Notes: generated from the letters alone by a model not told the origin. Counted from the stretch's first letter, positions 3,077 to 20,010 are shown. The stretch is 56,760 nt of DNA from a virus (IMGVR_UViG_3300044691_000555:1-56760); one strand, 5' to 3'. Numbers and translations: made by a program.

Positions 3077-3138
3077 TTCCAATGGTCTCGTGATGCTCGG
3101 GGAAAACTGGACGCGGAACGCAACGGGCACAAAAGGTT

Positions 3139-3492: not shown

Positions 3493-4367
3493 TCAGCGGC
3501 CCCTTCCATCAGCGTGTGGAAGTTGCGCTTGTCGCGATCGAGAGCTGCTGCAGCCGCCGGATTGATCCACAGCACTTCGGTGCGCGGCCGCGCGCCATCG
3601 GCCAGCGCCGCGAATTCGATGCGCCGCCAGTCGTGCAAGGCGTCGTCGTAGAGCGGGTGGGCGTAGCCGGACAGCACCACCATGCCGATCAGACCCCGGA
3701 GCGTCTCCAACAGCCTGACGTGCCCCCCCCCGTCGAGTTCGTGCTTATAGGCGGACTTGCCGCCCTTGAACATCGAACGGGTGTCGTGGACGTAGGGCGG
3801 GTCGACATAATGCAGCGACGTCGGCGCATCGTGGCGGGTCAGCACGATCAGCGCGTCGCGATGCTCGATCACGACGCCGCGCATGCGCTCGATGATCGCG
3901 CCATAGGCGTCCGGCAGATTCTGCCAGTCCTGCGCCGGCGTGGTGCCGCTGCGGTTCGAGTTCGAGCGGAAGCCCGTCGATTGATGCCCGCGTTGCGTCG
4001 CCGAATGGGCGTTGCTGCCAAACCCCATGAACGAGCGGATCACCAGCCGCCGCGCGCGCTCGACCGGATCGTCGGCGGGCTCATAGGCGATCTCGAATTC
4101 GCGCCTGGCGAACGGCGTCAGCCGCAGCAGTTCGATCAATCGGCAGGCCTGCGCCGGATCCTGCATCACCCGGAACAGCCCGACGATGTCGTCGTCAAGA
4201 TCGTTGTAGATCTCGGCATGGCTGCGCGGCTTGTGCAGCAGCACGCCGGCGCCACCGCCGAACGCCTCGGTGTAGAGCCGATGTGCCGGCAGGTATGGAA
4301 TGATCTGGCGCGACATCAGGAATTTGCCGCCGTGCCAGCGGACTGGTGGGCGTGTGATCGCGTTCAT
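3489..4367 (-). CDS. dam: DNA adenine methyltransferase, Dam/D12 class
   Basis: 'WHGGK', 'EAFGGGAGV', 'YNDLD', catalytic 'YVDPPY'. Confidence 0.9.
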   Translation of the reverse strand: MNAITRPPVRWHGGKFLMSRQIIPYLPAHRLYTEAFGGGAGVLLHKPRSHAEIYNDLDDDIVGLFRVMQDPAQACRLIELLRLTPFARREFEIAYEPADDPVERARRLVIRSFMGFGSNAHSATQRGHQSTGFRSNSNRSGTTPAQDWQNLPDAYGAIIERMRGVVIEHRDALIVLTRHDAPTSLHYVDPPYVHDTRSMFKGGKSAYKHELDGGGHVRLLETLRGLIGMVVLSGYAHPLYDDALHDWRRIEFAALADGARPRTEVLWINPAAAAALDRDKRNFHTLMEGAAE

Positions 4368-5368
4368 GCCGAAGTCCCTTTCTTCGGCACGCTGATTCCG
4401 AGGCTCCGGATCAGGTTGGTGCTATCGGCCCAGCGCGCGTGACCGAGCCATGCTGCCAGGAATTTTCGCAACCGCTCGTAATCGCCGGCGGCCCGGTACG
4501 CCGCGATTTTGCGCCGCGCCCGCGTCACGCTGTCCTTGCGCAGCAGCTTGTGGCTGGCCCAGATCCGGTAGCCGAGGAAATTGACGCCGCGCGAGACCGG
4601 CGCGATCTGCCATTTCGAGACCCGCAGCCCGAGTTGCTGGCGCGAGAATGCCTCGATCGCTTCCTTGACCCGCCGCAGATGCTCGGAACTGCGGCCGAGC
4701 ACCACGATGTCGTCCATGTAGCGGTACCAGACCCGCTCGCCGAGGGTCTGTTGCAGATAGCGGTCGAGCGTGGCGCCAGCATAGAGATTGGCGAAAATCT
4801 GCGACGTCAGGCTGCCGATCGGCAGGCCGATGCCGGCGCGCGGCACCATCGCTTCGATCAGTTTTAGCGTGGCGCGGCAGGAAATCTTGGCCTCGATCAG
4901 CCGCCACAGCACCTTGCGCTCGATCGAGGCGAAATAGGCCGAGAAATCCGTCTTGAGGAAGTAGAGCGGGCCATCGCGGGACTCGCGCCGCAACTCGCTC
5001 TGCAGCAGCACCACGCCGGCATGCGTCCCCTTGCCCGGACGGCAGGCGAATGCCCGCGGCAGCAGCGCGCGGTCGAAGATCGGCGCGATCACCAGGCACA
5101 GCGCCTGCTGCGCGATGCGGTCGCGGAACGGCAGCGCCGAGATCAGCCGCAGCTTTGGATCGAACACGTGGAACTGGTGCGGCGGACCGGCAACGTAGCG
5201 GCCGTCTGCGACGTCCCGGGCGAGATCGGCAAGGTTGAGCGCCGAAAATTCCTTGAATTCGAGATAGCCCGGCGTCAGCCGCTTGCCGGCGGCGGTCAGG
5301 CGCAGTGCCGCTTCCATGTTGCGCGGCGAGGTGATGTTGCCGATCAGATTGCGGTAGCGCTTTGTCAT
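4364..5368 (-). CDS. DGR reverse transcriptase
   Basis: YMDD catalytic motif; DGR-type 'GLPIGSLTSQIFAN' (GxxxSQ); 334 aa with no maturase or endonuclease domain; adjacent to TR and avd. Confidence 0.96.
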   Translation of the reverse strand: MTKRYRNLIGNITSPRNMEAALRLTAAGKRLTPGYLEFKEFSALNLADLARDVADGRYVAGPPHQFHVFDPKLRLISALPFRDRIAQQALCLVIAPIFDRALLPRAFACRPGKGTHAGVVLLQSELRRESRDGPLYFLKTDFSAYFASIERKVLWRLIEAKISCRATLKLIEAMVPRAGIGLPIGSLTSQIFANLYAGATLDRYLQQTLGERVWYRYMDDIVVLGRSSEHLRRVKEAIEAFSRQQLGLRVSKWQIAPVSRGVNFLGYRIWASHKLLRKDSVTRARRKIAAYRAAGDYERLRKFLAAWLGHARWADSTNLIRSLGISVPKKGTSA

Positions 5369-5691
5369 GACGCCCCCGCTGAAAAACCGGCCGCGGGTCT
5401 CGACAGCCGCAAATTGATGCGACCGCTACGCCCCGCTCTGCCGGACCGTGAAGTGTGTTCGCCGAAGCAGGACAGTCGGGCTGACCACCAGCCTTGGCTG
5501 AGTGTGATCCGCCGGCGCGACCGTGATCGTTGCCGAGCAGCAATCAGCATAAGGTCGTCACTGCGGCCGCGGGCGCCGAAGTTCTCGTTCGAATTGCCGG
5601 GGAAGTTGTACGCGACGTTCGCCTGGCGCGAGCCCGCGTCGTCGTCGTTCCACCAGTTCCCGCCGAACAAGGAAGCGCGCGGCTGCATCAT
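5365..5691 (-). other. Open reading frame spanning TR and spacer (108 codons)
   Basis: ATG overlaps avd stop, TGA overlaps RT start; same frame as the VR-encoded peptide; translation unproven. Confidence 0.45.
5557..5683 (-). repeat. DGR template repeat (TR)
   Basis: 127-nt repeat of both VRs; AAC-rich; differs from them only at its adenines. Confidence 0.96.
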
Positions 5692-6098
5692 TTCCCCGCC
5701 TGCCCCATCGGACGCGCGGACGCGTCAGATGCTTTCAGCTTCCTTTGCCATGCGCCGAGCATTTTTCCGGGCTCCGCCAGTAGCGCCAAGGCGGCGACAT
5801 GCTGTTTCGGGCCGAGGATTTTGATGTCGCCGCGACTGAGGAAGCGCAGGAATGACCGCAAGGTCGCGAACTCGGCATCGACGGCGTAGAGCCGCGACAC
5901 CTGCCTCGATTTTGCGGCATGGTAGAGGCCGCCGATCGGCCCGAACAGCGCCGCCAGCACGGCATCCCGGAGGACACCATGCCGGCGCGGCGCGTTCTGC
6001 AGGATCGGATAGAGATAGTTCACAAAGGCCTCGTATCGTTCCACGATCGCCAGGGCGTCGGTTGCTGAGTTTTCGTCCCTGACGATCTGAGTTTGCAT
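5688..6098 (-). CDS. avd: DGR accessory variability determinant Avd
   Basis: 136 aa helical protein with 'EPGKMLGAW' (Avd ExGxMxGGW-like motif); sits between target and TR. Confidence 0.92.
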   Translation of the reverse strand: MQTQIVRDENSATDALAIVERYEAFVNYLYPILQNAPRRHGVLRDAVLAALFGPIGGLYHAAKSRQVSRLYAVDAEFATLRSFLRFLSRGDIKILGPKQHVAALALLAEPGKMLGAWQRKLKASDASARPMGQAGK

Positions 6099-6107
6099 TG
6101 GCTAACC

Positions 6108-6127
6108 GCCGTCGCTGTCGCGCCGGC
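6108..6127 (-). promoter_or_regulatory. DGR target-recognition hairpin after VR1
   Basis: Minus strand GCCG-G-CGC[GACA]GCG-A-CGGC, a GRNA tetraloop. Confidence 0.75.
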
Positions 6128-7032
6128 TAGACAGGTTGCAGGTGGTCACTGCGGCCGCGGGCGCCGAAGTTCTCGTTCGAATTGCCGGGGAAGTTGTACG
6201 CGACGTCCGCCCGGCGCGAGCCCGCGTCGTCGCCGCCCCACCAGTACCCGCCGAACAAGGAAGCGCGCGGCGTGTCGGGGTCGCCGTCATGGCCCCACAC
6301 CCACAGATTGCCGGTTGCCTGCATCAGGCCGAACTTGCTGGTGCGCGGCGCGTCGAGCCCGGTCCTGACCGGATCATCGCCGATCGCCGTTTTTTCGGTG
6401 ACGCCGAACGCCGCGGCGAAAAACTCCTCGACGCTCAGCAGCCCCTTGCCATGCGCGGCCATCACGGCGGCCGCGGTGGCATAATCGAACCGCTTGTAGG
6501 TCTTGCCGGCGGGATCAAGCGGGCGGTCGTTGCCGTCGGCGATGGTGACGCCGAACTTGCTGGTGCCGTCCTCGGCGCAATTCGACCCGGTCAGATAGAT
6601 GTCGGCCCAGAATTTCCGGCCCAGCATCTCGACCAGCGCCATGCCGCGCGGATCCGGACACGCCGGGCGGAAATTCAGGTCCCACAGCGAGAACGGATTG
6701 ATTGCGGGAATCTCGTCGCCGCCGGCCCGCGCGGCCGCATTGCCGCCGGGCGCAAAGTGGAAGCCGCCGATATAGTCGGTTTCTTCCGGCGAACGCGTCG
6801 ACCGGAATGCGACGGGCGCGCCGCCGAGCGCCACGACATAGTCGGCGCCGGGCACCAGGCCCTGCTGCGGCAGCATCACCGGGGTATCTTCCGTCAGCGA
6901 CCGCTCGCCGAATGACGTTCCGGCCTTGACCAGCAGCGTATCGCGACCAGTCAGCTTCAGGACCGGCGAATGCACATCCATCTTGGTCAGGATCGATATC
7001 GGCCGATCTTCAAGTCTTGCTTGCTTGTTCAT
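6127..7032 (-). CDS. DGR target 1: Mtd-like C-type-lectin-fold protein lacking the N-terminal domain
   Basis: Mtd-like motifs 'GGFHFAPGGNA', 'SLWDLNFRP..DPRGM', 'FWADIYL', 'FGARGRSDHL'; C-terminal VR. Confidence 0.92.
   Translation of the reverse strand: MNKQARLEDRPISILTKMDVHSPVLKLTGRDTLLVKAGTSFGERSLTEDTPVMLPQQGLVPGADYVVALGGAPVAFRSTRSPEETDYIGGFHFAPGGNAAARAGGDEIPAINPFSLWDLNFRPACPDPRGMALVEMLGRKFWADIYLTGSNCAEDGTSKFGVTIADGNDRPLDPAGKTYKRFDYATAAAVMAAHGKGLLSVEEFFAAAFGVTEKTAIGDDPVRTGLDAPRTSKFGLMQATGNLWVWGHDGDPDTPRASLFGGYWWGGDDAGSRRADVAYNFPGNSNENFGARGRSDHLQPV
6145..6271 (-). repeat. DGR variable repeat VR1
   Basis: 6 mismatches to TR, all at TR adenines (5 A>G, 1 A>T). Confidence 0.95.
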
Positions 7033-7083
7033 GTCTCAGGCTCTCCAGGTTGCGCCGGCAGACCCTGCCGGCAGGGATTTGCT

Positions 7084-7827
7084 TCAGGCAGGCACCCACT
7101 GATCTCGGCCGACGCTGACGCCGGCGCCGAGCTGCAGCACCTGGCGTACCTTGGCGCGGGCGTTTTCCTTGCCGCGCGCCTTCGGGTGATCCTTGATCAG
7201 CTGCCAGATGTCGGCGACGCGGACCGGGCCCTCCATCGCGCGGATGGTTTCGCCGACCAGTTGCGCCCACGTCACATCGGCCAGGGCTTCGACCAGCACG
7301 AACCGCGGAAAAATCAGCGGCACGAACTGGCCGTTGAGCCCGCATGCGGCCAGCACGTCGGCATCGCCGTCGCCATAGGCGCACAGCACGGTCGGCGCGC
7401 CGCTATTGGCTGCGGCGCGATCGCCGCTCGGATAATGGAAATTTAGCCGGCCGCGCAGAAACAGCAGCGCATGCGCCCGTTCCCAGACGTGCCGGAAGAA
7501 CGCGTCGGTCTCGGTTCGCGCAAAGATGATGGTGGTGCCGCAACCATGCGACGCCAGCTTTTCCAGCCAGCGGCCGATGATGCCGTTGGTGTAGGGCGGA
7601 TTCAGCCAGACGCGCCCGAACCACGGCAACGCCAGCCCGTCATCGGCCTTGGTGTAGCGCGCCTTTGCCGTCGGCCAGGGCTGCACGTCCGGCGTCGCCG
7701 GGTCGAGATCGAAACTGGCGGCGCCGCCGAGTGCCGCCAGCACAGCCGGCGGCGTCAGCCATTCGACCGTCTGCGGCCGGTTGGAATGGTGACCGCCGAT
7801 GCCGGCGAAGCGTTGGGCCCGGTTCAT
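7084..7827 (-). CDS. Phage N6-adenine DNA methyltransferase
   Basis: 'EWLTPP', 'FDLDPA', 'VWLNPPY'. Confidence 0.85.
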   Translation of the reverse strand: MNRAQRFAGIGGHHSNRPQTVEWLTPPAVLAALGGAASFDLDPATPDVQPWPTAKARYTKADDGLALPWFGRVWLNPPYTNGIIGRWLEKLASHGCGTTIIFARTETDAFFRHVWERAHALLFLRGRLNFHYPSGDRAAANSGAPTVLCAYGDGDADVLAACGLNGQFVPLIFPRFVLVEALADVTWAQLVGETIRAMEGPVRVADIWQLIKDHPKARGKENARAKVRQVLQLGAGVSVGRDQWVPA

Positions 7828-8030
7828 GCGTCCACTCCCACCCGCTCACAGACCGGCGTACCCTCGCAATGAACCTGCTCGATGCCGCGCCAGTATTCGG
7901 TCCAGTGCCGGTCGCGACCGCCTTCGGTTTCATGGCGCGTGACCTTGACCAGGCCGCAATTGACACAATCGCGCTCGCTCTTGTGCGGAAACACGACCTT
8001 GTCGCCCCAACGATGGCGGGTTCCCGTCAT
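7824..8030 (-). CDS. Small Cys/His protein
   Basis: ATGA-coupled; HRW and CxxC motifs. Confidence 0.55.
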   Translation of the reverse strand: MTGTRHRWGDKVVFPHKSERDCVNCGLVKVTRHETEGGRDRHWTEYWRGIEQVHCEGTPVCERVGVDA

Positions 8031-8281
8031 CGGCCGAACCTCCGGAAGGTGTTCGAGACCAGAGCCACCGCGTCGAAACCGAGCAGGATCACGACAGCGA
8101 TGACGGCGCCGCCGAAAGCACCGATCACGGTGACGACGCGCACGGCGGCGAGGTTGAGCGCTTTTCCCGGCCCCATTCCGCCGCGACGATCGCACCAGCG
8201 CTGGCCGGTCATGATCGCCAGCACGGCGCCGATGATGCCGGCTGCGACGAACAGTGCGGCGATATCTGCCTTGGTCATCAT
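8027..8281 (-). CDS. Small membrane protein (2 TM)
   Basis: Two hydrophobic stretches; ATGA-coupled. Confidence 0.55.
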   Translation of the reverse strand: MMTKADIAALFVAAGIIGAVLAIMTGQRWCDRRGGMGPGKALNLAAVRVVTVIGAFGGAVIAVVILLGFDAVALVSNTFRRFGR

Positions 8282-10461
8282 TCGGCAGCCTCCAGCGTGA
8301 ATTCGAGATCGTCGGGGAGCTCGATCTCGCGCGGCGCGAAATTGGCGCGCACCAGCGCTTCCGCCAACGGCGGCGGCACGCTGTTGCCGCACTTCGAGAC
8401 CTGCTGGGTTTTGGTGATGGCGACGCGGTCGCCTTTCTTCCAGCCCATATCTTCGTCGTCGGCGATCGCGATGCCTTCGGCGATGATGTAGCTTTCAGGA
8501 AAGCCTTGGGCGCGGAACAATTCGCGCGGGATCAGCATCCGCATCCCGATATCGTTGATGACGTAGGGCTCGCCCTCGATCATCACGGTGACGATGGCCG
8601 CGCGATCTTTCGTGGTGACCGTATGCAGCGGATCGTCCGGCGTTTGACCGTCGCCAGTGCCGTAATATTTCTGCAGGAACGCCGCCGACAATTGCGTCTT
8701 GCCCTGCCCGTCCGCCATCACGGTCCGCGCCGGCTCGTCCAGCGACGACCCGACCCCGGTCCCGAACTGCCGCAGCAAATTCGCCGCGACCAGGCCCTGA
8801 TGCGAGCCCGTATGCAGGATGGTCGAGACCGGCGCATCGACCGGACGGCCGGGGTTGATCCCATCGCCGCGCGAGATGTTGTGCTGCGCCAGGAACGCCG
8901 CAACCAGGTGCATATGCGCGCCGCCGGCCGTGACCGTATGCGCCGGCTGATCGGCGCCCTGGAACGGCTTGCCTGCGTTGCGCATCGTCATCAGGTGCGG
9001 CGCGACGATGCCGATCGGCGCCGCCCCGCCCGGGCGCTTGAGGTAGGAATTCGAGGTCACCGTCGGTGCCGGGTGTTCGAGCGACGCGCCGACCTGGCCG
9101 CCGTGAAACTTGGTCAGATGCGGCGCGATCAGCGCATGCCGGTTTTCAGTCGTCTGCGTCCGCAACGGGTCTTCGACGCTGGCGCCGCGGCCGCTTTCGC
9201 CTTCACCTTCGCCGTAATAGGCGGACAGCACGGGCGCGATCAGCGCATGCTTGACCCCGCCGGCGACGGTCGTGCCGAGCGGCTTGTCGAGGCCGGGCAC
9301 ACGCGGTTCCTGCCCCTCGCGCTCGCCGTATCCGGTCTGGATCAGCGTCGGCACGATGATCTGGTTCTGATCCTTCGCCGATGCGGTAATGGTATGCATC
9401 GGACCGGCGGCCGCCCGGATGCTGCCACCTTGCTGCGCGGCGCTGACGAACGGCGTGACGACGACGCTATCGGCCTTCGCGGTCAACGTTTGCGCCGGCA
9501 GATCGATGCCGCGCGGTTCGGTCTGGCCCATTCGCCCGCCGACACCGGCCACGAACGGCACGGCCAGCGCCTTCTCGCCGCGATGTGCGCCGGTAATGGT
9601 CGCGATCGGATCGTCGATCGACTCGGTTCGATCGCCGCCCTGATGCGTCAGATTGACGATGAACGGCTTGGCCGCATCCAGCACGTAGCGCTTCACGCCC
9701 TTGGCGATCCGCGCCATCGTCGCCGGCTGCAGCGGCCGGACCGCCCGCAGTCCGAATCTTTCCATGATCTCCGCGGCAGTGTCGAAGATCGAGGGGCACG
9801 GCAGCGACCAGTCGATGATTTCGGCGGCCGTGCGCCATGGCAGTTTATTGCCGGCGGCAACGTCGGGATCCTTCGGGCCGCCATGCGTCGGTTTCGGCCA
9901 CACGATCGGCAGGCCATCTCTCCTCGCAATCAGGAACAGCCGCTTGCGGATGGTCGGCGCGCCATAGTCGCAGGCGCGCAATTCGCGATGCTCGACCCTG
10001 TAGCCGAGCCGCTTCAGTTCATTGACCCAGCGCTTGAAGGTCGCGCCCTTGCGCTCCGGGCACGGGCGGCCATCTATGGCCAGCGGTCCCCACGTCTGGA
10101 ATTCCTCGACGTTCTCCAGGATGATGACGCGCGGTTTGACCTGGCGCGCCCAGCGCACCACCACCCAGGCGAGGTCGCGAATGCTCTTCTCGACCGGCTT
10201 GCCGCCCTTGGCCTTGGAAAAGTGCTTGCAGTCCGGCGAGGCCCACAGCAGCCCGACCGGACGGCCATCACAGACCTGCAGCGGATCCACCTTCCAGATT
10301 GAATGCGGCAGATGCAGCGTGTCCGGATGGTTGGCCGCATGCATCGCCAGCGCAACCGCATCATGGTTGATCGCGATGTCGGGCGAGATGCCGAGCGCCC
10401 GTTCGATGCCCGTCGAGGCGCCGCCGCCGCCCGCAAAGCTGTCGACGATCAATTCCCTCAT
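8278..10461 (-). CDS. C5-cytosine DNA methyltransferase with long repetitive variable region
   Basis: 'DSFAGGGG', catalytic 'SPDC', 'ENV', 'RKRLF', C-terminal 'GNSVPP'. Confidence 0.92.
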   Translation of the reverse strand: MRELIVDSFAGGGGASTGIERALGISPDIAINHDAVALAMHAANHPDTLHLPHSIWKVDPLQVCDGRPVGLLWASPDCKHFSKAKGGKPVEKSIRDLAWVVVRWARQVKPRVIILENVEEFQTWGPLAIDGRPCPERKGATFKRWVNELKRLGYRVEHRELRACDYGAPTIRKRLFLIARRDGLPIVWPKPTHGGPKDPDVAAGNKLPWRTAAEIIDWSLPCPSIFDTAAEIMERFGLRAVRPLQPATMARIAKGVKRYVLDAAKPFIVNLTHQGGDRTESIDDPIATITGAHRGEKALAVPFVAGVGGRMGQTEPRGIDLPAQTLTAKADSVVVTPFVSAAQQGGSIRAAAGPMHTITASAKDQNQIIVPTLIQTGYGEREGQEPRVPGLDKPLGTTVAGGVKHALIAPVLSAYYGEGEGESGRGASVEDPLRTQTTENRHALIAPHLTKFHGGQVGASLEHPAPTVTSNSYLKRPGGAAPIGIVAPHLMTMRNAGKPFQGADQPAHTVTAGGAHMHLVAAFLAQHNISRGDGINPGRPVDAPVSTILHTGSHQGLVAANLLRQFGTGVGSSLDEPARTVMADGQGKTQLSAAFLQKYYGTGDGQTPDDPLHTVTTKDRAAIVTVMIEGEPYVINDIGMRMLIPRELFRAQGFPESYIIAEGIAIADDEDMGWKKGDRVAITKTQQVSKCGNSVPPPLAEALVRANFAPREIELPDDLEFTLEAAE

Positions 10462-10757
10462 CGCTGCGCCCCTTCATCGGCATTCGGTTCCGGCGTGGTC
10501 AGGATCGTCTCGACGATCTGCTGCACCGATTTCCGCTTGAACGCGCCGGCATCGGCGGCGCGTGCCAGCCGCCGCGCCCATGCTGCCGGGAAGCGCTTGA
10601 CGCTGCGCGGCCCGCCGTCGATCCCGATCACGGTGACCCGTTCCAGTTCGTGCGGGCTTTCGCGCTGTGTCGTCTCGTGCACCAGCAGCACGACGGCGTC
10701 AGCGACGCGGGCGGCGGTCGCGCCAGGCTGGCCGAGGATGGTGAGGAGGTCCGTCAT
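10458..10757 (-). CDS. Hypothetical protein
   Basis: ATGA-coupled member of the early operon. Confidence 0.55.
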   Translation of the reverse strand: MTDLLTILGQPGATAARVADAVVLLVHETTQRESPHELERVTVIGIDGGPRSVKRFPAAWARRLARAADAGAFKRKSVQQIVETILTTPEPNADEGAQR

Positions 10758-11233
10758 GCCGGCACCCGCTGCATCATCTCGCCAGCCACATCGATCGGAA
10801 TCGAGAAGAACCCCTGCGCGCCCTTGAACGGAATCGGACGGTCCAGCTTGATGACCCGGCGCCTGCGCCAGGCAAAACGTTCATCGGACCAATTCCCGCA
10901 GACGCGATCCTCATCATGGGCCGGCGACGTTCGATCCATGCGATCGCAGCTGACCAGCTCAACCGCGCCGAGGATCGCGCCCGTCGGCAGGTCCATCGCC
11001 CAATGGCCGCCGAACTCGTTCTCTAAAATCTCGCGCAGCGGATGGCCGACAGGGAAATCGCGCTCGAAACGTTTTGCGGCGTGAACGGCCAGCCAGCCGC
11101 GGTAGCCGGTTTTCCAGTGCCGCGTCTCCGTCGGCTTGCTCTCGGTCAGCCATAGTGATGCCCACGGCTGCCAGAGCGAAAACCCCTTCATGGTTGGCGC
11201 CGGATCTTCGATTTTGAAGAGATCGCCGGTCAT
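10754..11233 (-). CDS. ASCH-domain protein
   Basis: 'SLWQPWASL...K..ETRHW.T.YRG.LAVHAAK', 'GAQGFF'. Confidence 0.8.
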   Translation of the reverse strand: MTGDLFKIEDPAPTMKGFSLWQPWASLWLTESKPTETRHWKTGYRGWLAVHAAKRFERDFPVGHPLREILENEFGGHWAMDLPTGAILGAVELVSCDRMDRTSPAHDEDRVCGNWSDERFAWRRRRVIKLDRPIPFKGAQGFFSIPIDVAGEMMQRVPA

Positions 11234-11601
11234 GCCACTGCCTCGCAGGTCTGCCGGTTCAACAGTTCAAGCAGTGGATCGCCGTGGCAGGCCGCGTCGG
11301 CGGCGCACCAGCAGGCGACGTTGCGATGACGCAGCGCCTTCAAATTCTCGGCGATGTGGCTGATCACCAGCCGCTGGCTTTCGAGGCTGGCCTTGCGCGA
11401 GACCGCCAGCCGGCCGCCCAGCATCATCCGGAACAGGTGCACGCATTCCGTCCGGTCACCGTCCTCGCCGACCACGAAGGGATTGCCGAGCGGACCCGGC
11501 CTGGCGATGTTGACCGCCGGCAAGCCGTTGAGCGCCAATGAGGCCGCCTGCAGGTTAAAGCCCTTGGCGCGGGAAAGCCGGAGGCGGACGGGCTTGATCA
11601 T
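11230..11601 (-). CDS. DUF4326-like protein
   Basis: 'RPGPLGNPF', 'NVACWC....CHGD.L'. Confidence 0.75.
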   Translation of the reverse strand: MIKPVRLRLSRAKGFNLQAASLALNGLPAVNIARPGPLGNPFVVGEDGDRTECVHLFRMMLGGRLAVSRKASLESQRLVISHIAENLKALRHRNVACWCAADAACHGDPLLELLNRQTCEAVA

Positions 11602-11795
11602 GCGCAGCCCTCCGCCGGCATCGCGGCCGCCGCTTCGGCAGGGACCTTCCGGCTGGCGTTGTTGGCGTCGGCCTCGATCGCGAGATTCCGCAGATCAGGT
11701 GCCAACCATTCGAGCCCGGTTTCCCTGCCCTCCAGCCCGGCCTCGATCGCCCATGTCAGCTTGGTCGAATGAATTCGCTTGATTGGTCTCGTCAT
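11598..11795 (-). CDS. Hypothetical protein
   Basis: ATGA-coupled on both sides. Confidence 0.45.
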   Translation of the reverse strand: MTRPIKRIHSTKLTWAIEAGLEGRETGLEWLAPDLRNLAIEADANNASRKVPAEAAAAMPAEGCA

Positions 11796-12019
11796 GTCAG
11801 ACCCACTTCCTTCTCCGCGCGCATCTGCACCAGGTCGACCGCATTGAAGCCGGGGCAGCGCTCATCGAACGCCGCCTCGCATTTGTCGCCGTAGCTTGCG
11901 AACGTCGCGCCGCATCGCGGGCAGATGATGCCGGTCCCGATCCGCGCGCGAACCAGCTCCTGCACGCGCTGGCGCAGTTCGCGGATACGGTTCGGGACCT
12001 TGCGATGCGACGCGTCCAT
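11792..12019 (-). CDS. Small Cys-rich protein
   Basis: CPRC...C...C; coupled to the next gene. Confidence 0.5.
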   Translation of the reverse strand: MDASHRKVPNRIRELRQRVQELVRARIGTGIICPRCGATFASYGDKCEAAFDERCPGFNAVDLVQMRAEKEVGLT

Positions 12020-12026
12020 GTTGCGC

Positions 12027-12854
12027 TCAGCCGATCTTGCCGTAGATCGCCAGCAGCGAGGTCTTCTCCATCGCATCGGTGACGATCAGCTTGAACGCGG
12101 CCTGGCGGATGTGTTCGGCGCGGTGCAGCTTGATGCCGAGCAGCAATTTTCCTTCCTCAAGCTTCCAGCGCAGGAACGCCTGCACCTCGACATCGGGATC
12201 GCCAAAATAGACGGGGATGCCGAGCACGAACTTGGTCGGCAGTTCGATGTCGCCCTTGCTGCGGGCCTCGGTATTGTCGTTGAACTCGAAACTCTCGTTG
12301 TCGCTGTTGGTGCGGACCGCGGCGATGAAGTTGACGCTGCGGCGGGCCTGCAGATCGCGCACCGCTTCGAGTAGCGATCCGGCATCGGGCGCCTTGATGT
12401 CGGGCGCGTTCTCCTCGATGAAGCGCGCGAATTCGAGCTGCGGCTTCAATTGCCCGCTAATGCCGGTCCAGGTCTTCCACTCCTCGGACGGCGGCAGATC
12501 GAGCGTGGCCTTGTGCGAGACATGCGCGGGCTTGGCGGCGCCGTGATAATCGATCGCGCCGACGATCCGGCTAGAGACGACGTCGGCAAACATCATCGAC
12601 GTTTCGGCCTTGAACCGGTTCAGGTACTCGATCAGCGCGTCGGCGTTCTGCAGCGTGACGTCCTGCCGGATGATCTTCGGCATCAGCACTTCGAGCGCAT
12701 TGGGCGGCGTCACCTCCTTTTCGGTGAAGCCATGCGGGACGACCAGAAATTCCTTGCCGCTGTCGGATTTGACGATCGAGGCTACCCCGGCCGCTTTGAC
12801 GGCGAGCGCGGCGATGGTACCGGCTTCATTGGTGGTATCGTGCTTGTCAGCCAT
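12027..12854 (-). CDS. DUF2303 (YfdQ-like) phage protein
   Basis: 'IDYH', 'SEEWKTW', 'QLEFARFIEEN', 'IPVYFG'. Confidence 0.8.
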   Translation of the reverse strand: MADKHDTTNEAGTIAALAVKAAGVASIVKSDSGKEFLVVPHGFTEKEVTPPNALEVLMPKIIRQDVTLQNADALIEYLNRFKAETSMMFADVVSSRIVGAIDYHGAAKPAHVSHKATLDLPPSEEWKTWTGISGQLKPQLEFARFIEENAPDIKAPDAGSLLEAVRDLQARRSVNFIAAVRTNSDNESFEFNDNTEARSKGDIELPTKFVLGIPVYFGDPDVEVQAFLRWKLEEGKLLLGIKLHRAEHIRQAAFKLIVTDAMEKTSLLAIYGKIG

Positions 12855-12910
12855 GTCTAAAACTCCTCAAATGTTGGATGAAACGAGGGGGAATGCGATG
12901 CAGATCGATT

Positions 12911-13243
12911 TCAGGCGGTGCCGGCCGGACGCGCGCCGCCTTCGCTGCCGGCTTCCTTGAACATCTCGCGCTGCGCCGGGTCGGTGCGGTGCAAATCGCC
13001 GGCCTGGTCGGCGAAGAACACGGCCGACGGGAGTTCCGGCCGCGGGATTTTCGAGGTGATCGAGATCTGCAGGTCGCGCTCGGCGCCGCCGCCTTTGGCA
13101 ACCGCGACCTTGATCTTGATGGTGATCTCGCCCTTGAGGCCGGTCTCGTTGACGGCCTCGTTGAGCAGTGAGAATTCGCGGCTGGCGAGGTCGACGGCGC
13201 GGCCGTTGCGGTATTCACGAAGCACGTCAGTAATGGGACGCAT
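12911..13243 (-). CDS. YfdP-like partner of DUF2303
   Basis: 'AVNETGLKGEITIKIKV', 'FFAD..GDL.R.DP.Q'; synteny. Confidence 0.7.
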   Translation of the reverse strand: MRPITDVLREYRNGRAVDLASREFSLLNEAVNETGLKGEITIKIKVAVAKGGGAERDLQISITSKIPRPELPSAVFFADQAGDLHRTDPAQREMFKEAGSEGGARPAGTA

Positions 13244-13631
13244 GCTGGTCTCCTTTGCTGGAGGTGGAAGGGGAATGCAGGGAACGCCGATCGAGCGCCG
13301 AGCGGCCCGGCAGGGGATCGCCGAAGAAGGCCGCGGTCAGCGTCCTGTGTTCGGGCAGCGGCGGGGGCAGCGGCAAACGGTCGGCGGGCATGATGCGCAT
13401 TGCACGATTGCGCTTGCGCGGCCGGTCCAGTCGAACACGCTTCACGCCCTTGGCTATGTTGCGCAGCGTCAGCCAGCGCTGCCGGCACGACACATAGCTG
13501 CGGCCCGGGAATTCCTCGCCGAGCACCATCCAGGCATCGTCGCCGCGGATGGTCTTGCCCTCGCAAAGGTCGCGCAGCCGCGCGTCTTCGGCCGGCGTCC
13601 ACAGCACATACGCGCCCGCGGAGTCTCGCAT
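13227..13631 (-). CDS. Hypothetical protein with Myb-like 'WTPAED' N-terminus
   Basis: 'WTPAEDARL...RS..SCRQRW' resembles a SANT/Myb repeat. Confidence 0.5.
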   Translation of the reverse strand: MRDSAGAYVLWTPAEDARLRDLCEGKTIRGDDAWMVLGEEFPGRSYVSCRQRWLTLRNIAKGVKRVRLDRPRKRNRAMRIMPADRLPLPPPLPEHRTLTAAFFGDPLPGRSALDRRSLHSPSTSSKGDQHASHY

Positions 13632-14176
13632 CAGGCGACCCTCCGTGCGGACTTGCGGTTACGATCGAACCGCTCGCCTTCGGCGATCAGCAGCGCGACC
13701 GCCTTGACCAGGTTACGGCGATAATCAGCGGGCTTCCACCAATCGTGGTCCCACCCCCATATCAGGCGCCCGGTGACCTCGACGGTTTTGCTGTCCTGCC
13801 ATCGCTCGCAATAAATGACCCGCTCGCCCAAGGCGTAAGCCGCCGCAGCGCGCGCCAATTCACCTTGGGCATGGGCGTCATCGTGTGACTCGTCCCAGCC
13901 TTCGACATCTTTCTGCCGAACCCGCTCCGCGAGCCCGGCGTAGGCAAACGGCGACAGCTTCATCCGCATGCCGAAGAATTCGAACACACGCTCCAGCAGA
14001 TAGCCGCGCGCGATCGAAATCACGGTCATGATGATCGCAAAGCTGATGTTCTGGTGCAGCGAGATCGTTACGCCGAGCAGCGGCAGAATGGCCCACTGCG
14101 CAAACAACGAGATGCCGAACCCGGCGCCGGTCGAGATCACGCTTTTAAGAAAGGAAGTCGAGCGCGATTGCTTCAT
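13631..14176 (-). CDS. Two-TM protein fused to a conserved phage domain
   Basis: N-terminal TM pair; 'ERVRQ..EGW...HDD.H..GELARAAAAY...RRNLVKA.AL'. Confidence 0.65.
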   Translation of the reverse strand: MKQSRSTSFLKSVISTGAGFGISLFAQWAILPLLGVTISLHQNISFAIIMTVISIARGYLLERVFEFFGMRMKLSPFAYAGLAERVRQKDVEGWDESHDDAHAQGELARAAAAYALGERVIYCERWQDSKTVEVTGRLIWGWDHDWWKPADYRRNLVKAVALLIAEGERFDRNRKSARRVA

Positions 14177-14601
14177 GCGACCTTGTCCTTCGCCGTGAAG
14201 CGGTCACACCATCCGAGCGGGTGAACCGGCTTGCCGTTGAATTCGGAATCCGGGTTGCCGCAGACGGTCGCGACCACGCCAGGCGTCAGGCCATGCGCGC
14301 AGCTGCTGCAGGACTCTTTCGGCTGGATCGAGAAATCGGTCTGGCGCTCGTCGAGATAGGCCTGACCGCTGGCCGCCATCGCGTCCTGCACCACCTTCAT
14401 CGCCGCGTCGTGATCGGCGGCGCCGTACATCATCAGCTTCAGCGGAATCCCGACCGAGGTGAGATCGAAGTGATGCGTCTTGCCGTCCTTCATGTAGACC
14501 CACGCCGCACGCGGTACGCCGACCAGCAGCAGCGGCACGCCATCGCCTTGGCCTTCCGGCGAGATCGCGAACACGATCTTCTGTTCGATGTTCTGCACCA
14601 T
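14173..14601 (-). CDS. Hypothetical protein with C-terminal Cys cluster
   Basis: Start MVQNIEQ; CxxC...C...WC. Confidence 0.55.
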   Translation of the reverse strand: MVQNIEQKIVFAISPEGQGDGVPLLLVGVPRAAWVYMKDGKTHHFDLTSVGIPLKLMMYGAADHDAAMKVVQDAMAASGQAYLDERQTDFSIQPKESCSSCAHGLTPGVVATVCGNPDSEFNGKPVHPLGWCDRFTAKDKVA

Positions 14602-14978
14602 CAGGTCCCCACTTTCGTGCCGTCGTCCCAGATGAACTCGCCATCCGCGCCGACCGGGAAATGCGAACCGCAGCCGCAGCAGAACGTGCCGGAATAGAAT
14701 TTCGGGTCGCGGGCATAGGTTTCGGCGAGCGATTGCCCCATCGTGGTCGCGACGCCGCATTTTTGGTGGACGTAGGTCCGCTGCACCGGCCGCACGAAAC
14801 CACGCGCCCTCTCGGCATCGCTGAGCACGACATAACCCTTCTGCTGGCCATCGGGCCGCAGCTCGTCATGGCCAGGCGTCACCGGCGAGCCGTCGGTCAG
14901 CGTGCGCTGGGTCCGATCGACCGCAGGGGTGGCGCCGACCGCGCGGGCGATGCCGTCGATGATGGTTTTGACGGTCAT
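14601..14978 (-). CDS. Putative Zn-binding phage protein
   Basis: 'H.KCG..TTM', 'TFCCGC..HFPVG'. Confidence 0.65.
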   Translation of the reverse strand: MTVKTIIDGIARAVGATPAVDRTQRTLTDGSPVTPGHDELRPDGQQKGYVVLSDAERARGFVRPVQRTYVHQKCGVATTMGQSLAETYARDPKFYSGTFCCGCGSHFPVGADGEFIWDDGTKVGT

Positions 14979-16663
14979 GCCGGCACCTGTGCGTCAGACG
15001 CCGGACGTTCCGTGCGCCTCAAGAACTCTGGAATATCGAGCGGGTGCGGAGGCGCGGCAGCGTCAGCGACGCCGTTCGCTGACGGCCGACGCTTCGCGTC
15101 GCCCTGCTCGGGCATGGTTCCTACGTGCCGACCGTCGTCAGCCGTTCCGCAACCGGTGCTGGGGGCCTCGCGAGCCGTACCAGACGCCTCCCTGGGTATT
15201 TCGAAATGATCGCAGCAGACGCATTCGATCGCCGCGATGAAAAGAGGTGCCGGCGCAGGGAGCAAACCAACTGCGCCGGCGTCCGATGTCCGGCCATCGG
15301 CAACCCTACCGGCAGGCGGTTCTATACCTGGCGGCTCCTTTGGAACCGCACGCGCGCCTGCTTTCGCTTGGGAATGGTCTTTTCTTTGAACGGGATGCTG
15401 GGTGAACCGCTCGACGTCGTCTGCCTTCGTCAGCGCATCGCGGCAGCCTGGCGGAATCCAGCACGGCGCCTGCGGTTCGAGGTACTTGTCCCATACCAGC
15501 CAGACATAGGCGGTCGCGGTGTCACCTTGCGGATTCCAGCGACCCTTGCACAGCGGCACGCGCTCGACGAAAAACGCGATCTTGGTCGGCGGCCTGTCGC
15601 GGTAGATGTTTTCGTAGCGGCCGAGGGTTTCCAGGCAGCGCATTTGCACGAACATCGCGACGCCATATTGGGCGCGCGCCAAGGCCTTGATCATAAAGCT
15701 TTCGATTTTTTCGCCGAACGGCGGGTTGGTGATGATCCAGTCGGCATAGATGTCGCCGCTGTCCGGCCTGAGAAAATCGACCGGTTCGCGGCGGCTATAG
15801 CCATAGTCGTGGATATCGGTCGCGATCACCTTGCCGAAATATTCCGCCAGCACCTCGGCAATGTGGCCCTCGCCGCAGGCCGGTTCCCACACCGAATATT
15901 TTTCGATGTCGTTTTCCATCAGGTGCGGCAGCAGCACATGCTCGACCAGCGCCCGCGTCGCCCATGGCGGCGTCGGAAAGAAGTCGAGACTGTCGTCAGG
16001 CTCCAGCCTTGACGCCATGGTGGCGCGGTTACCGGACGGCAGCGCCTTTTCCAGTGCCGCCGGCTGCTCGGCTTCCGGCAGCCTGGCGATCTTTTCCGCG
16101 GCAGAGAGCGATAGGTCGCGTCGTTCGACTGCAGCGTTCAGCGGCTCGATACCTGCCTGTGCCACCAATTTGCCGGACGCCGCGGTGCGCTCACTGACAC
16201 TCAATGCTTGTGCGGCTTCCGCAGTCGAAACCTTCTGCAAATTTGCAGAAGGTTCGAGATCAGTCCGCTCCCCTTGACGCATATTGGCAAGTCGACCTGC
16301 GACCAATCCCCGCTGGCTGGTGGTCAGGTGCCGCCGCTTTAGGTTCTTCGACAACACCCACGCGAGCGGCTCGCCATCCATCGCCGGATTGAACGCGCAG
16401 AACCAGAGCTGCGGCGGATCGAGCAGTTCAGGTGAAAGAGCGTCGCCGGCCCGATGGCCCCAACCCGGGCCCAAGACTTCGCCTGACTCGGCAAGGTGTT
16501 GAAGTGCCTTGTACCGGTTGCGACCATCGAGGATCTGTCGGTCGATGAGAACGATTCGATCGCGAATGCCATTTTCGCGGATGTCATCGACAAATGCCGT
16601 AAAATCCTCGCCGTCCAGCAACGGAAACAGTTCGGCGTAAGGGTGGGCCGGAAGGTGCGTCAC
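14975..16663 (-). CDS. ParB-like N-terminal domain + HTH fused to amino-methyltransferase
   Basis: GTG start; 'HPYAELFP...ILDGRNRY'; HTH; 'DFFPTPPW', 'WEPACGEGH', 'ITNPPF'. Confidence 0.8.
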   Translation of the reverse strand: MTHLPAHPYAELFPLLDGEDFTAFVDDIRENGIRDRIVLIDRQILDGRNRYKALQHLAESGEVLGPGWGHRAGDALSPELLDPPQLWFCAFNPAMDGEPLAWVLSKNLKRRHLTTSQRGLVAGRLANMRQGERTDLEPSANLQKVSTAEAAQALSVSERTAASGKLVAQAGIEPLNAAVERRDLSLSAAEKIARLPEAEQPAALEKALPSGNRATMASRLEPDDSLDFFPTPPWATRALVEHVLLPHLMENDIEKYSVWEPACGEGHIAEVLAEYFGKVIATDIHDYGYSRREPVDFLRPDSGDIYADWIITNPPFGEKIESFMIKALARAQYGVAMFVQMRCLETLGRYENIYRDRPPTKIAFFVERVPLCKGRWNPQGDTATAYVWLVWDKYLEPQAPCWIPPGCRDALTKADDVERFTQHPVQRKDHSQAKAGARAVPKEPPGIEPPAGRVADGRTSDAGAVGLLPAPAPLFIAAIECVCCDHFEIPREASGTAREAPSTGCGTADDGRHVGTMPEQGDAKRRPSANGVADAAAPPHPLDIPEFLRRTERPASDAQVPA

Positions 16664-17091
16664 GCCACGCCCTCCCCGGCCAGCTGCGCAATTTCGCCGC
16701 GGCAGGCCTCGATCCCGACGATGATGCGGTCGAACCGCTTGCCGCGCACAAGCGCCGCGAACGGCGTCGGATCCTGTGACACGCCGCAGGGATCGAACAC
16801 GCGCGCCGAAGGTGACGCGGCATAGAGATGGCGCCAGGTGCTGCGGTTGCCGTCGACCACCACAAAGAACCGGCTCTTCGGCATATCGAGTGCGAGCATC
16901 ACGGCGTCGAGCGTGACGTCGGCGGGCCAGCACAGCAGGCCCAGCGGCGGCGCCGAGGTCGCGGTATTGGCCACGGCGTTGCGCAGGGCGGCGATCTGGC
17001 CGTCGTGATCACGGGCCGGACGCCTCAGGTTCTGCATCAGCGCGGAGCGGCCGCGACCGACCTGGCGATGCTGATGGTTCCAATTGTCCAT
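16660..17091 (-). CDS. Hypothetical protein
   Basis: Overlap-coupled in the early operon. Confidence 0.5.
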   Translation of the reverse strand: MDNWNHQHRQVGRGRSALMQNLRRPARDHDGQIAALRNAVANTATSAPPLGLLCWPADVTLDAVMLALDMPKSRFFVVVDGNRSTWRHLYAASPSARVFDPCGVSQDPTPFAALVRGKRFDRIIVGIEACRGEIAQLAGEGVA

Positions 17092-17339
17092 CAGACGAAC
17101 CCCCGGTCGATCGCCAGCCATTCCGGAATCGTCAGGTTGGCGAGCGGCAGCGTGACGCGGCCGCCCTGCCGGTCGGTGCCCTGCGTGGTCTTGCCGGTCA
17201 GGTGCTTTGAGCCGATCAGCGATTTTGCGATCCAGACCGCGCGCGTGTTGTCGCCGTCGATCGAGACCAGCACCGCGCGGCCCTTCGGCGGGTCGTAATG
17301 CATCGCCACCAGCACTTCGGTCGGGTCCTGCTTGCTCAT
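17091..17339 (-). CDS. Hypothetical protein
   Basis: 'AVWIAKS...TIPEWLA..RGF' pattern of small phage proteins. Confidence 0.6.
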   Translation of the reverse strand: MSKQDPTEVLVAMHYDPPKGRAVLVSIDGDNTRAVWIAKSLIGSKHLTGKTTQGTDRQGGRVTLPLANLTIPEWLAIDRGFV

Positions 17340-17659
17340 GACTGCGGCCCGTCGCCGGTCAGCAACCGCAGGTCAGCGGCCGCGGCCTCGCCTGCGGTCT
17401 CCGCCACCATCTCCGCGCGCAGCGACGGCTTGATCGCGAGGCCAGCGCGGATGAAGGCGGCGCCGATCCGCAGCGCCCGCTCCGGCGAAAACCCGACGCG
17501 CACGGCATTGCCGGCCTTGTCCGAGCCGAAGATGCGCACGATCGCCATATCGGGATCGGCGGTCAGCAGCATCTCGCGGGTCAGCAGTTCGCAGGCTTCG
17601 CGGCCGAATTCGGTTTCGGCTGCACCTGGCGTGGCAGATGGGGTGGCGAGGTCGTCCAT
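17336..17659 (-). CDS. Hypothetical protein
   Basis: Start abuts the stop of target 2; ATGA-coupled downstream. Confidence 0.5.
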   Translation of the reverse strand: MDDLATPSATPGAAETEFGREACELLTREMLLTADPDMAIVRIFGSDKAGNAVRVGFSPERALRIGAAFIRAGLAIKPSLRAEMVAETAGEAAAADLRLLTGDGPQS

Positions 17660-18610
17660 CTACAGCGCCCGCGCCCGGACGAGACCGCCGTCGCTGCCGC
17701 GCCGGCGACCAGGTTGCAGGTGGTCACTGCGGCCGCGGGCGCCGAAGTCCTCGTGCGAATCGCCGGGGAAGACGCACGCGACGTACGCCCGGCGCGAGCC
17801 CGCGTCGTCGCCGTACCACCAGTACCCGCCGAACAAGGAAGCGCGCGGCGTGTCGGGGTCGCCGTCATGGCCCCACACCCACAGATTGCCGGTCGCCTGC
17901 ATCAGGCCGAATTTGCTGGTGCGCGGCGCGTCGAGCCCGGTCAGCTTGGGATCGCGTTTGGCAGAACTCTTTTCCGTGACGCCGAAAGCGGCGGCCGGAA
18001 ACTCGTCGAGGCCGAGCAGCCCCTTGCCATGCTGCGCCATCACCGCGGCCGCGGTCGCATAGTCGAACCGCGCGTAAGGCTGACCGGTCGAAGGGTCGAG
18101 CGGACGGTCGTTGCCGTCGGCTATGGTCACGCCGAATTTGCTGGTGCCGTCGAGATGGCAGGTCGCGCCGGTCAGATAGACATCGCACCAGAACTGTCCG
18201 CCGGGCTTTTGCACCAGCGCCATGCCGCGCGGATCGGGGCACGCGGGGCGAAAATTCAGATCCCACAGCGAACACGGATTGATCGCCGGAATGTCATCGC
18301 CGCCGGCGCGCGCGGTGGCGTTGCCGCCAGATGCGAAGTGAAAGCCGCCAATGACGTCGTCGCTCGACGGAACAGCAAAAGCGCGCAACGCCCGCGCCAC
18401 GCCGCCGGATACGACGACGCCATAATCCGCGCCGACAACCAGCGGACTGGCGAACTCGACCGGTGTCTGCTTTGCGAAACGCTGTCCAGCAAAAACGATC
18501 CCGGCCCGGATCGCGATGGTTTCCGCGCCGGTCGCGATCAGCGCCGGCAGATCGGGGTCTTTCTTGATCAAGATCGCGATCGACCCATCCATCTTGGCAT
18601 GCGCGTTCAT
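17660..18610 (-). CDS. DGR target 2 (remote): Mtd-like C-type-lectin-fold protein
   Basis: Paralogue of 6127-7032 with the same motifs; contains VR2 and the hairpin. Confidence 0.92.
   Translation of the reverse strand: MNAHAKMDGSIAILIKKDPDLPALIATGAETIAIRAGIVFAGQRFAKQTPVEFASPLVVGADYGVVVSGGVARALRAFAVPSSDDVIGGFHFASGGNATARAGGDDIPAINPCSLWDLNFRPACPDPRGMALVQKPGGQFWCDVYLTGATCHLDGTSKFGVTIADGNDRPLDPSTGQPYARFDYATAAAVMAQHGKGLLGLDEFPAAAFGVTEKSSAKRDPKLTGLDAPRTSKFGLMQATGNLWVWGHDGDPDTPRASLFGGYWWYGDDAGSRRAYVACVFPGDSHEDFGARGRSDHLQPGRRRGSDGGLVRARAL
17687..17706 (-). promoter_or_regulatory. DGR target-recognition hairpin after VR2
   Basis: Same stem as at VR1 with loop GGCA (GRNA). Confidence 0.75.
17723..17849 (-). 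repeat. DGR variable repeat VR2
   Basis: 11 mismatches to TR, all at TR adenines (6 A>G, 4 A>T, 1 A>C). Confidence 0.95.
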
Positions 18611-18630
18611 AGGTCAGTCCTCCAGGTTGC

Positions 18631-19997: not shown

Positions 19998-20010
19998 GTT
20001 GAGGCCTCCC

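Follow-up and report, generated by a model that had tools for sequence, protein, structure and literature searches.

A diversity-generating retroelement with two short Mtd-like targets in the Cro-side operon of a temperate soil myophage

The IMG/VR virus record IMGVR_UViG_3300044691_000555 (56,760 bp, CheckV completeness 100%, G+C 65%), analysed over its whole length and called the window below, is a temperate soil myophage with a lambda-like organization, whose host is probably a Bradyrhizobium-type alphaproteobacterium. It carries an intact, two-target diversity-generating retroelement (DGR) of the type found in Bordetella phage BPP-1. The original prediction, made from the sequence alone, had placed a reverse transcriptase (RT), a template repeat (TR), the accessory gene avd and two paralogues bearing a variable repeat (VR), about 11.6 kb apart, in this region. 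All of them are found at those places, the VR starts being 11,578 bp apart, and the features of the DGR are as follows:

4364-5368, minus strand: DGR reverse transcriptase, 334 amino acids (aa); Pfam RVT_1, E=4.8e-19
5557-5683, minus strand: TR, 127 nt with 22 adenines, between avd and the RT gene
5688-6098, minus strand: accessory protein Avd, 136 aa; Pfam bAvd, E=1.4e-26; NCBIfam DivGenRetAVD (NF033474), 106 bits for a cut-off of 80
6108-6127, minus strand: GC-rich hairpin just past VR1, overlapping the stop codon of target 1 (GCCG-G-CGC, 4-nt loop, GCG-A-CGGC)
6127-7032, minus strand: target 1, short Mtd-like protein, 301 aa; PDB Mtd, E=2.4e-45, residues 16-298 against Mtd 58-378; phrog_11262, E=5.5e-81
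6145-6271, minus strand: VR1, in target 1; 6 mismatches to TR, all at TR adenines
17660-18610, minus strand: target 2, short Mtd-like paralogue, 316 aa; PDB Mtd, E=3.8e-46, residues 13-298 against Mtd 56-378; phrog_11262, E=8.8e-79
17686-17707, minus strand: hairpin past VR2 with the same stem and loop GGCA, inside the C-terminal extension of target 2
17723-17849, minus strand: VR2, in target 2; 11 mismatches to TR, all at TR adenines

Reverse transcriptases of the DGR type are defined by the motifs [I/L]GxxxSQ and YxDD, and that of the window has IGSLTSQ at 184 and YMDD at 217. The TR and the two VRs make up a common ungapped block of 127 nt; past a single G/C difference at its 3' edge, the repeats diverge. 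As had been predicted, all of the 17 mismatches over the two VRs fall at TR adenines, a pattern that has a chance probability of about 1e-13 given 22 adenines in 127 nt, and 12 of these 22 sites vary in at least one VR. Read in frame, the TR abounds in AAC and AAT codons, and the VR covers residues 254-296 of both targets, in alignment with the VR of Mtd. A blastn comparison of the TR with the whole window recovers three copies only (TR, VR1 and VR2), so that the structural genes are devoid of any VR; the earlier claim of a separate tail fibre and of structural genes lacking a VR therefore holds. The post-VR hairpin is present after both VRs and absent after the TR. Its energy is no better than that of shuffled sequence (z = -1.2 for VR1 and z = -0.15 for VR2), so that only its conservation counts.

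Target 2 runs 18 codons beyond the point where target 1 stops, through the hairpin (17660-17722), and similar arginine-rich C-terminal read-throughs are encoded by the relatives P0043, P0047, P0070 and P0091. Contigs assembled from one DNA run, possibly that of the source sample, and placed on 4000-19500 stop at 6161/6286 and 17739/17864, within the VRs, and at 5586/5589, within the TR. These stops fit graph breaks induced by repeats or heterogeneity of the VRs, and the repeats alone suffice as a cause. The product of orf17336, located downstream of target 2, was considered as a decayed Avd and ruled out, as it has no similarity to it (E=17).

The two targets are about 70% identical. No synonymous difference separates VR1 from VR2, and in the remainder of the paralogues the synonymous divergence (dS) is 0.80 and the ratio of non-synonymous to synonymous divergence (dN/dS) is 0.32. 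The combination of this dS outside the VR with VRs identical at synonymous sites indicates an old duplication, after which both VRs have been kept in step with one TR, and the ratio of 0.32 outside the VR indicates purifying selection on both copies. By part, dN/dS is 0.52 in the sandwich and 0.20 in the lectin part.

Both proteins had been predicted to begin at the beta-sandwich of Mtd, and this is upheld by their alignments (E of about 1e-45), which start at Mtd residue 58 for target 1 and 56 for target 2 and extend to residue 378. Similarly, phrog_11262, which PHROGs labels 'tail protein', is matched only from profile position 64 or 72 to 391. The Pfam family mtd_2nd, whose cut-off is 24.6 bits, is matched by target 2 at 25.8 bits and, below this cut-off, by target 1 at 21.2 bits. 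Both targets thus correspond to a beta-sandwich followed by a C-type lectin fold, without the N-terminal beta-prism, which we take to be residues ~1-48 of Mtd. No homologue was found for Mtd residues 1-55 or for the BPP-1 fibre protein Bbp9, either in the window or in the eight related genomes or regions described below. A GGAG ribosome-binding site precedes the start codon of each target, and target 2 is immediately preceded by a stop codon of the gene upstream. Because the starts are well defined and no sequence of the window resembles Mtd 1-55, the beta-prism is considered to be truly absent. As also predicted, no signal peptide or membrane segment was found in either target, the top Kyte-Doolittle means over 19 residues being 1.31 and 1.55.

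When the TR peptide is aligned with that of BPP-1, 10 adenine-bearing codon positions are common to both, so that diversification concerns one and the same face of the lectin fold in the two systems. In a set of 115 homologues with lengths of 280-335 aa, the N-terminal ~12 residues vary and are hydrophilic, and conservation starts at an L-x-K-x-D-P-x-S-P motif of the sandwich. The mean entropy of this short family is about 2 bits in the N-terminal sandwich versus about 1 in the lectin domain.

Modelling suggests that the targets are probably trimers. A trimer model of target 1 scored 0.42 versus 0.18 for the best control, with one of the three runs at 0.00, and it may be a matter of memory, the Mtd trimer being already solved. 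The same mark was attained by 20 of the 30 benchmark proteins whose solved structure is a pair of one chain, and by 1 of the 23 whose solved structure is a single chain. The model has a run-to-run contact agreement of at least 45% and a partner pLDDT (predicted local distance difference test) of at least 84, with its contacts in the lectin domain. The AlphaFold2 monomer of target 1, obtained from a 70-row alignment, has a mean pLDDT of 61.8, the sandwich being confident and residues 207-301 being below 50. A Foldseek search with this poor model (TM-score, i.e. template modelling score, 0.36) gave five Mtd entries as the only matches at E<=0.001.

The two targets are located in the same operon, outside the structural module. 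The features needed to place them are the following:

19362-19997, plus strand: CI-like repressor with an S24 peptidase domain; phrog_4, E=2.4e-20; Pfam Peptidase_S24, E=1.1e-11
19023-19280, minus strand: cro-position gene, first gene of the operon, divergent from the repressor (position and operator-like palindromes)
14975-16933, minus strand: ParB-like/methyltransferase fusion
8278-10461, minus strand: C5 methyltransferase, 727 aa, with a long C-terminal extension
7084-7827, minus strand: Dam-like N6-adenine methyltransferase, upstream flank of the cassette; Pfam PF05869, E=4.6e-7
3489-4367, minus strand: D12-class N6-adenine methyltransferase, downstream flank of the cassette; Pfam PF02086, E=1.3e-9
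1721-3433, minus strand: O-like replication initiator, an open reading frame (ORF) downstream of the DGR whose true start is probably further in; phrog_1032, phrog_270 and phrog_345, E from 2e-10 to 7e-7
1041-1907, minus strand: NusG-like antiterminator, the final regulatory gene ahead of the late genes; phrog_6386, E=2.4e-15; Pfam NusG, E=5.3e-5
78-986, minus strand: protein of 302 aa, encoded between the genes of the NusG-like antiterminator and of the small terminase; phrog_27 ('tail completion or Neck1'), E=1.4e-16; weak Minor_tail_Z match
30349-31773, minus strand: tail fibre gene (474-aa tail protein), without VR
29819-30349, minus strand: fibre-associated gene (176 aa), without VR

A string of minus-strand genes, divergent from the repressor, runs from 19280 to the start of the window. 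It comprises, in this order, the cro-position gene, a helix-turn-helix (HTH)-like gene in cII position, target 2, small ORFs, the ParB-like/methyltransferase fusion, genes for proteins with DUF7220, Myb-like, DUF2303 and DUF4326 domains, the C5 and Dam-like methyltransferases, target 1, Avd, TR, RT, the D12 methyltransferase, a DUF4031 protein, the O-like initiator, the NusG-like antiterminator and the 302-aa protein. On the circular map, the terminase genes come after the 302-aa protein. The layout is therefore lambda-like and the DGR lies in the Cro-to-antiterminator segment. The structural module occupies the minus strand between 56.5 and 25.3 kb and encodes TerS, TerL, portal, protease, major head protein, sheath, tape measure, baseplate hub and wedge and an endolysin-like protein.

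Within the operon, target 1 adjoins the RT cassette among DNA methyltransferases and target 2 is the third gene, counting the cro-position gene. The original prediction had made target 2 the third gene after cro: its place in the Cro-side operon stands, but the count includes the cro-position gene, which has no Pfam or PHROG match and is called cro by position alone. Target 1 had been put between two adenine methyltransferases; the flanks were rightly named, but they enclose the cassette as a whole (target 1, Avd, TR and RT), with the Dam-like enzyme on one side and the D12-class enzyme on the other. The location of the DGR upstream of a replication gene was correct, the O-like initiator being downstream of the cassette. 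The ~80 nt that separate the cro-position gene from the CI-like repressor (19281-19361) include several palindromes with GGTAC/GTACC half-sites, which are likely operators of the genetic switch. The operon holds four DNA methyltransferase genes, and methyltransferases flank the DGR in most relatives too. Scans of 1-20000 gave one promoter-like site for 2.8 expected and 18 terminator-like sites for 16.4 expected, both at chance level.

In a set of 5.8 billion proteins, 1000 homologues of target 1 were obtained at E<=1e-10, the best 120 of them being mostly 297-316 aa long, and several of the homologue contigs carry two target copies. The named sources include Bradyrhizobium (B. brasilense, B. 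elkanii and Bradyrhizobium sp. YR681), Rhodopseudomonas, Afipia (A. felis), Pseudolabrys and Rhizomicrobium. A survey of 16 loci (13 viral and three from a scan of genome contigs) found the order target-Avd-TR-RT in 13 of them, while two more have only an Avd fragment beside the target. Two targets are present in seven of the 16, in tandem or 4-6 kb apart, L011 and L012 looking like one phage. With the window TR as probe on 15 loci, at least 75% of the mismatches fall at TR adenines in 18 of 22 TR-VR comparisons; of the four failures, two stem from register errors of the ungapped method, and no copies were obtained from one locus. The target frames are intact in the window and its relatives.

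The gene context was studied in a sample of eight, i.e. four virus records read whole (G001-G004) and four prophage stretches of 60 kb in three bacterial genomes, these genomes being drawn from a family sample of 301 of which nine have a match. The location put forward in the original prediction extends to these relatives: the cassette or the targets lie outside the structural module in all eight, and the identifiable neighbours are early-type genes in seven, the nearest ORFs of G002 being without assignment. These neighbours encode ParB-like/methyltransferase proteins, C5, Dam or D12 methyltransferases, DUF7220, phrog_3193 or phrog_464 proteins, or a repressor. A NusG-like antiterminator is encoded in five of the eight; it is located between the cassette and the terminase/head genes in four (G004, G129C1, G059C16 and G235C3) and downstream of the targets in G001, where no head genes like those of the window were found. 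Homologues of the terminase, portal or protease are found downstream on the same strand in six of the eight, and in G002 the cassette and the tail fibre genes are on opposite strands. The G001 provirus has lost most of Avd, TR and RT, but both of its targets are intact and one is located at 2.2 kb from the repressor. At 52742-52970 of this provirus (locus L024), Avd residues 5-61 abut RT residues 308-325 with no TR in between, and its two VR copies differ at 15 positions. In G059:C16, a second target (31323-32246 of the 60-kb stretch) is found on the opposite strand, ~9 kb from the cassette and beyond a homologue of the HTH-like gene; all of its 13 mismatches are at TR adenines.

The sheath family PF04984 is matched in the window and in G004 and has no match in G001-G003. 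G001 encodes a tape measure, tail assembly and other tail proteins, and G003 a tape measure and a J-like central fibre protein, neither of them with a sheath match. The tails of the relatives differ, those of some having a sheath and those of others looking siphovirus-like. The only window proteins common to all relatives are the targets, Avd and RT; no tail protein is shared. Nor was any constant partner gene found beside the targets in these relatives, as the upstream neighbours vary (Dam, HTH-like, DUF7220, ParB-methyltransferase or phrog_3193) and tandem targets have nothing between them.

Among 1.84 billion cluster representatives, 569 match at E<=0.001 and 170 at E<=1e-30. In the first 50 representative matches listed, an N-terminal extension is absent from 20 and reaches at least 80 aa in 27. 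A maximum-likelihood tree was built from 145 of 154 sequences, nine having been dropped because they cover fewer than 200 query residues, including gp20 of P12026; its root is arbitrary and it does not give the ancestral form. The window targets belong to a clade of 24 rows (20 short, three long and one intermediate) with a Shimodaira-Hasegawa-like approximate likelihood ratio test (SH-aLRT) value of 100 and a stem of 0.74. The Mtd of BPP-1 belongs to another group of 102 rows, 87 of them with N-terminal extensions of at least 80 aa. Of the three long rows of the short clade, at least one (P0122) has the length and match offset seen in read-throughs of upstream ORFs, and the long relatives P0080 and P0086 have an internal start of the short form after an in-frame upstream ORF, one such ORF being ProQ/FinO-like. 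In a Pfam scan of 10 long family members, eight had only mtd_2nd, one collagen/CBM repeats and one a weak DUF6551 match. On the basis of these comparisons, true Mtd homologues form a well-supported clade of their own, made of early-operon targets and separate from the fibre-type Mtds.

The DGR of the window resembles that of BPP-1 in several respects. The order target, Avd, TR and RT is the same in both, the RT is 54.7% identical to Brt (tblastn, E=4e-104) and the target is 38% identical to Mtd over the sandwich and the lectin fold. The TR has 127 nt here and 134 nt in BPP-1, and in both systems the VR has a GC-rich end that is followed by a hairpin, a putative one in the window. However, BPP-1 has a single target of 381 aa that includes the beta-prism and whose gene closes the structural cassette, immediately following the tail fibre gene bbp9, whereas the window has two prism-less targets of ~300 aa, 11.6 kb apart in a Cro-side operon of a myophage that lacks any Bbp9 homologue. 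The BPP-1 Mtd and the window targets also fall in different major groups of the family tree. Marinomonas phage P12026 is like BPP-1 and unlike the window, as its mtd comes directly after the tail fibre genes.

The layout of the window has precedents, one in print and one in a GenBank record; what is said here of published work refers to excerpts of the papers cited. The second DGR target of Quimbyvirus is located among four methyltransferase genes and a nuclease gene, away from the structural module, and was regarded by the authors as non-structural and related to conflict (Benler et al. 2021, PMC8008677). Quimbyvirus differs in that it keeps a structural target beside its tail fibre genes, of which the window has none, and in that its hosts are Bacteroides. 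The other precedent is the cultured temperate myophage Magia of Burkholderia (MT701587), which encodes an RT (gene 44), an Avd (gene 45) and two 'lectin fold domain' targets (genes 47 and 57). According to its GenBank record, these targets are ~5.6 kb apart in an early leftward operon between the repressor and the integrase, and the genome announcement mentions targets in 'relatively short reading frames' (PMC7883833). In contrast to those of the window, they have 120 and 126 aa and correspond to a bare lectin fold, and the cassette is on the repressor/integrase side rather than the Cro side. At E<=1e-5, tblastn gives no match between target 1 and the Magia targets, the Magia RT is not among the RT matches at E<=1e-30, and the 14 records matched by target 1 at E<=1e-5 in tblastn include no Burkholderia or Bacteroides phage. 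The group of non-structural targets formed by the window, Quimbyvirus and Magia is one of layout and not of homology.

Other phage DGRs also have two targets. Faecalibacterium phage Lagaffe_CP has two Mtd-like targets for which a receptor-binding role was assumed (PMC11792537), and the short tgt2 of gut phages nd4 and nd12, which has neither beta-prism nor sandwich, was assumed to be a host binder in the Tentaclin paper (PMC10743442), in which the beta-prism 'presumably' attaches Mtd to the fibre. In the excerpts consulted on Lagaffe_CP, nd4 and nd12, where these genes stand with respect to early genes is not taken up. Among 372 targets, Wu et al. (2018) counted 12 Mtd-domain proteins, taken as tail proteins, and Roux et al. 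(2021) classed viral targets mostly as tail structural proteins by machine-learning predictors. The portions of the literature searched hold no account of this alphaproteobacterial short-Mtd clade or of its early-operon position; the supplementary tables of Wu et al. and Roux et al. may include members. What seems new here is the occurrence of Mtd homologues associated with a Brt-like RT as a clade of stand-alone early-operon targets, without any structural target.

Taken as a whole, these data can be assembled in the following model, the mutagenic homing mechanism of which is taken from the established BPP-1 model and is supported by the DGR parts and the adenine pattern. The RT, together with Avd, would copy the TR RNA and make errors at adenines, and the resulting cDNA would replace the last ~127 nt of the two paralogous target genes, with up to ~15 codons rewritten on the C-type lectin fold's ligand-binding face. 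Both targets would be made from the Cro-side early operon from the start of infection or induction, target 2 being an immediate-early product. They would be soluble, early-expressed hypervariable binders that carry no signal peptide, are not anchored to the tail and act inside the cell, a reading to which we give roughly an even chance (about 0.5). Early expression, location outside the virion and the kind of ligand are what we infer here, the timing being read from gene order alone. The non-virion location is proposed because of the position in the operon, the missing docking domain, the occurrence of the clade in phages with unrelated tails, none of whose tail genes is co-conserved with it, and the separation of this clade from the fibre-type Mtds, and the non-structural reading of the Quimbyvirus target provides it with a precedent (PMC8008677).

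A more specific and doubtful proposal is that the trimers, encoded beside four methyltransferases of the operon, are an anticipatory counter-defence. They would be among the first products made from the incoming genome, and the variant drawn by the DGR in each phage would bind and neutralize a polymorphic defence protein of the host, for instance a component of restriction or abortive infection. If this were true, the DGR would switch an 'intracellular tropism' and not adsorption, and the tail-tip Mtd of BPP-1 would be the fibre-docked branch of a family that has free cytoplasmic members too.

Several points weigh against intracellular binders. To our knowledge, all of the phage DGR targets that have been studied experimentally are virion receptor-binding proteins, and so are the only solved relatives of the targets, the Mtds. 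The diversified codons coincide with the receptor-binding face of Mtd at the 10 common positions. In the short family, conservation is lowest in the sandwich, as expected if this part adapted to docking sites on different tails. Furthermore, weak Mtd variants work by the avidity of many trimers per particle (PMC2408619), an avidity that a free cytoplasmic trimer would lack. An early operon can also stay transcribed late, and an early position is compatible with later assembly into virions. Finally, no partner gene was found beside the targets.

The alternative that survives best, and which is possible, is that the targets are accessory adhesins or tropism switches of the virion, made early and later put on the fibre or baseplate through the apex of the sandwich, the two paralogues widening the receptor repertoire. 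Such adhesins would account for the homology to Mtd across both the sandwich and the lectin domain (E of ~1e-45), for the diversifiable codons held in common and for the modelled trimer; the variable sandwich could track different tails, the avidity logic applies on particles (PMC2408619), and this is the role that was assumed for the targets of Lagaffe_CP (PMC11792537) and for tgt2 of nd4 and nd12 (PMC10743442). However, the genes are in a Cro-side operon here and outside the structural modules in 8/8 relatives, the beta-prism is missing and no Bbp9-like fibre is encoded. The clade spans phages with and without a sheath, has no co-conserved tail gene and stands apart from the fibre-type Mtds, and the phage has a fibre and fibre-associated genes of its own.

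It is unlikely that the targets are soluble lectins acting outside after lysis, where they would coat host polysaccharides or receptors or serve as decoys and thereby alter the adsorption of progeny or competitors. The lack of a signal peptide would imply release by lysis, a lectin fold and a trimer suit the binding of surface glycans or proteins, and the genes are untied from tail genes; nevertheless, a protein used after lysis has no need of the immediate-early position of target 2, and we know of no precedent, nor was one found in the parts of the DGR literature consulted. Still less probable is an action of target 2 in the lysis-lysogeny decision or another regulatory step, in which it would sense a variable host factor, target 1 being a back-up copy. 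Target 2 does come directly after two small regulatory-looking genes, near the repressor and the operators, and one G001 target is 2.2 kb from CI, but in many relatives the RT-proximal target stands alone or the targets are in tandem, and no protein feature points to binding of DNA or of a regulator. That the cassette is a mobile passenger of a permissive accessory region and the targets drifting, functionless remnants of a tail adhesin is the least credible proposal, for although G001 has lost most of Avd, TR and RT and accessory methyltransferases abound in the region, the paralogues have a dN/dS of 0.32 for a dS of 0.80, the frames are intact in the window and its relatives, the homologues number 1000 at E<=1e-10 with the best 120 mostly ~300 aa long, and the adenine-only pattern recurs in 18/22 TR-VR comparisons.

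Targets of phage DGRs are routinely annotated as tail proteins, as in the PHROGs label of phrog_11262. Here, close relatives of the textbook Mtd and Brt are encoded outside tail modules, beside different types of tails, and without the domain presumed to dock on the fibre. If the targets are not parts of the virion, phage hypermutation serves something other than adsorption, and predictions of host range that equate a DGR with a tropism switch would be wrong for the short-Mtd clade. The named Bradyrhizobium and Afipia sources make the role of non-structural DGR targets approachable by experiment.

In the rest of the record, a near-identity DNA search of 1-25000 against phage records recovered just methyltransferase fragments and one match of 100 nt; judging from this search, the phage has no cultured close relative. 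Two other genes were located:

23155-24816, plus strand: serine integrase
45865-47853, minus strand: SGNH/lysophospholipase-like esterase, 662 aa, in the head-to-tail region; phrog_8480, E=1.4e-32

The 662-aa protein may be what the original prediction called the head spike, and it could be a deacetylase of surface polysaccharides. The 302-aa protein encoded at 78-986 also adjoins the antiterminator in the relative G004. Within the O-like ORF, three direct repeats of ~42 nt (2530-2682) are 79% identical, and each of them contains the inverted repeat AGCCCT...CAGGGCT. These repeats resemble the iteron origin located within the O gene of lambda, and a weaker fourth copy (62%) is found at 7646-7687.

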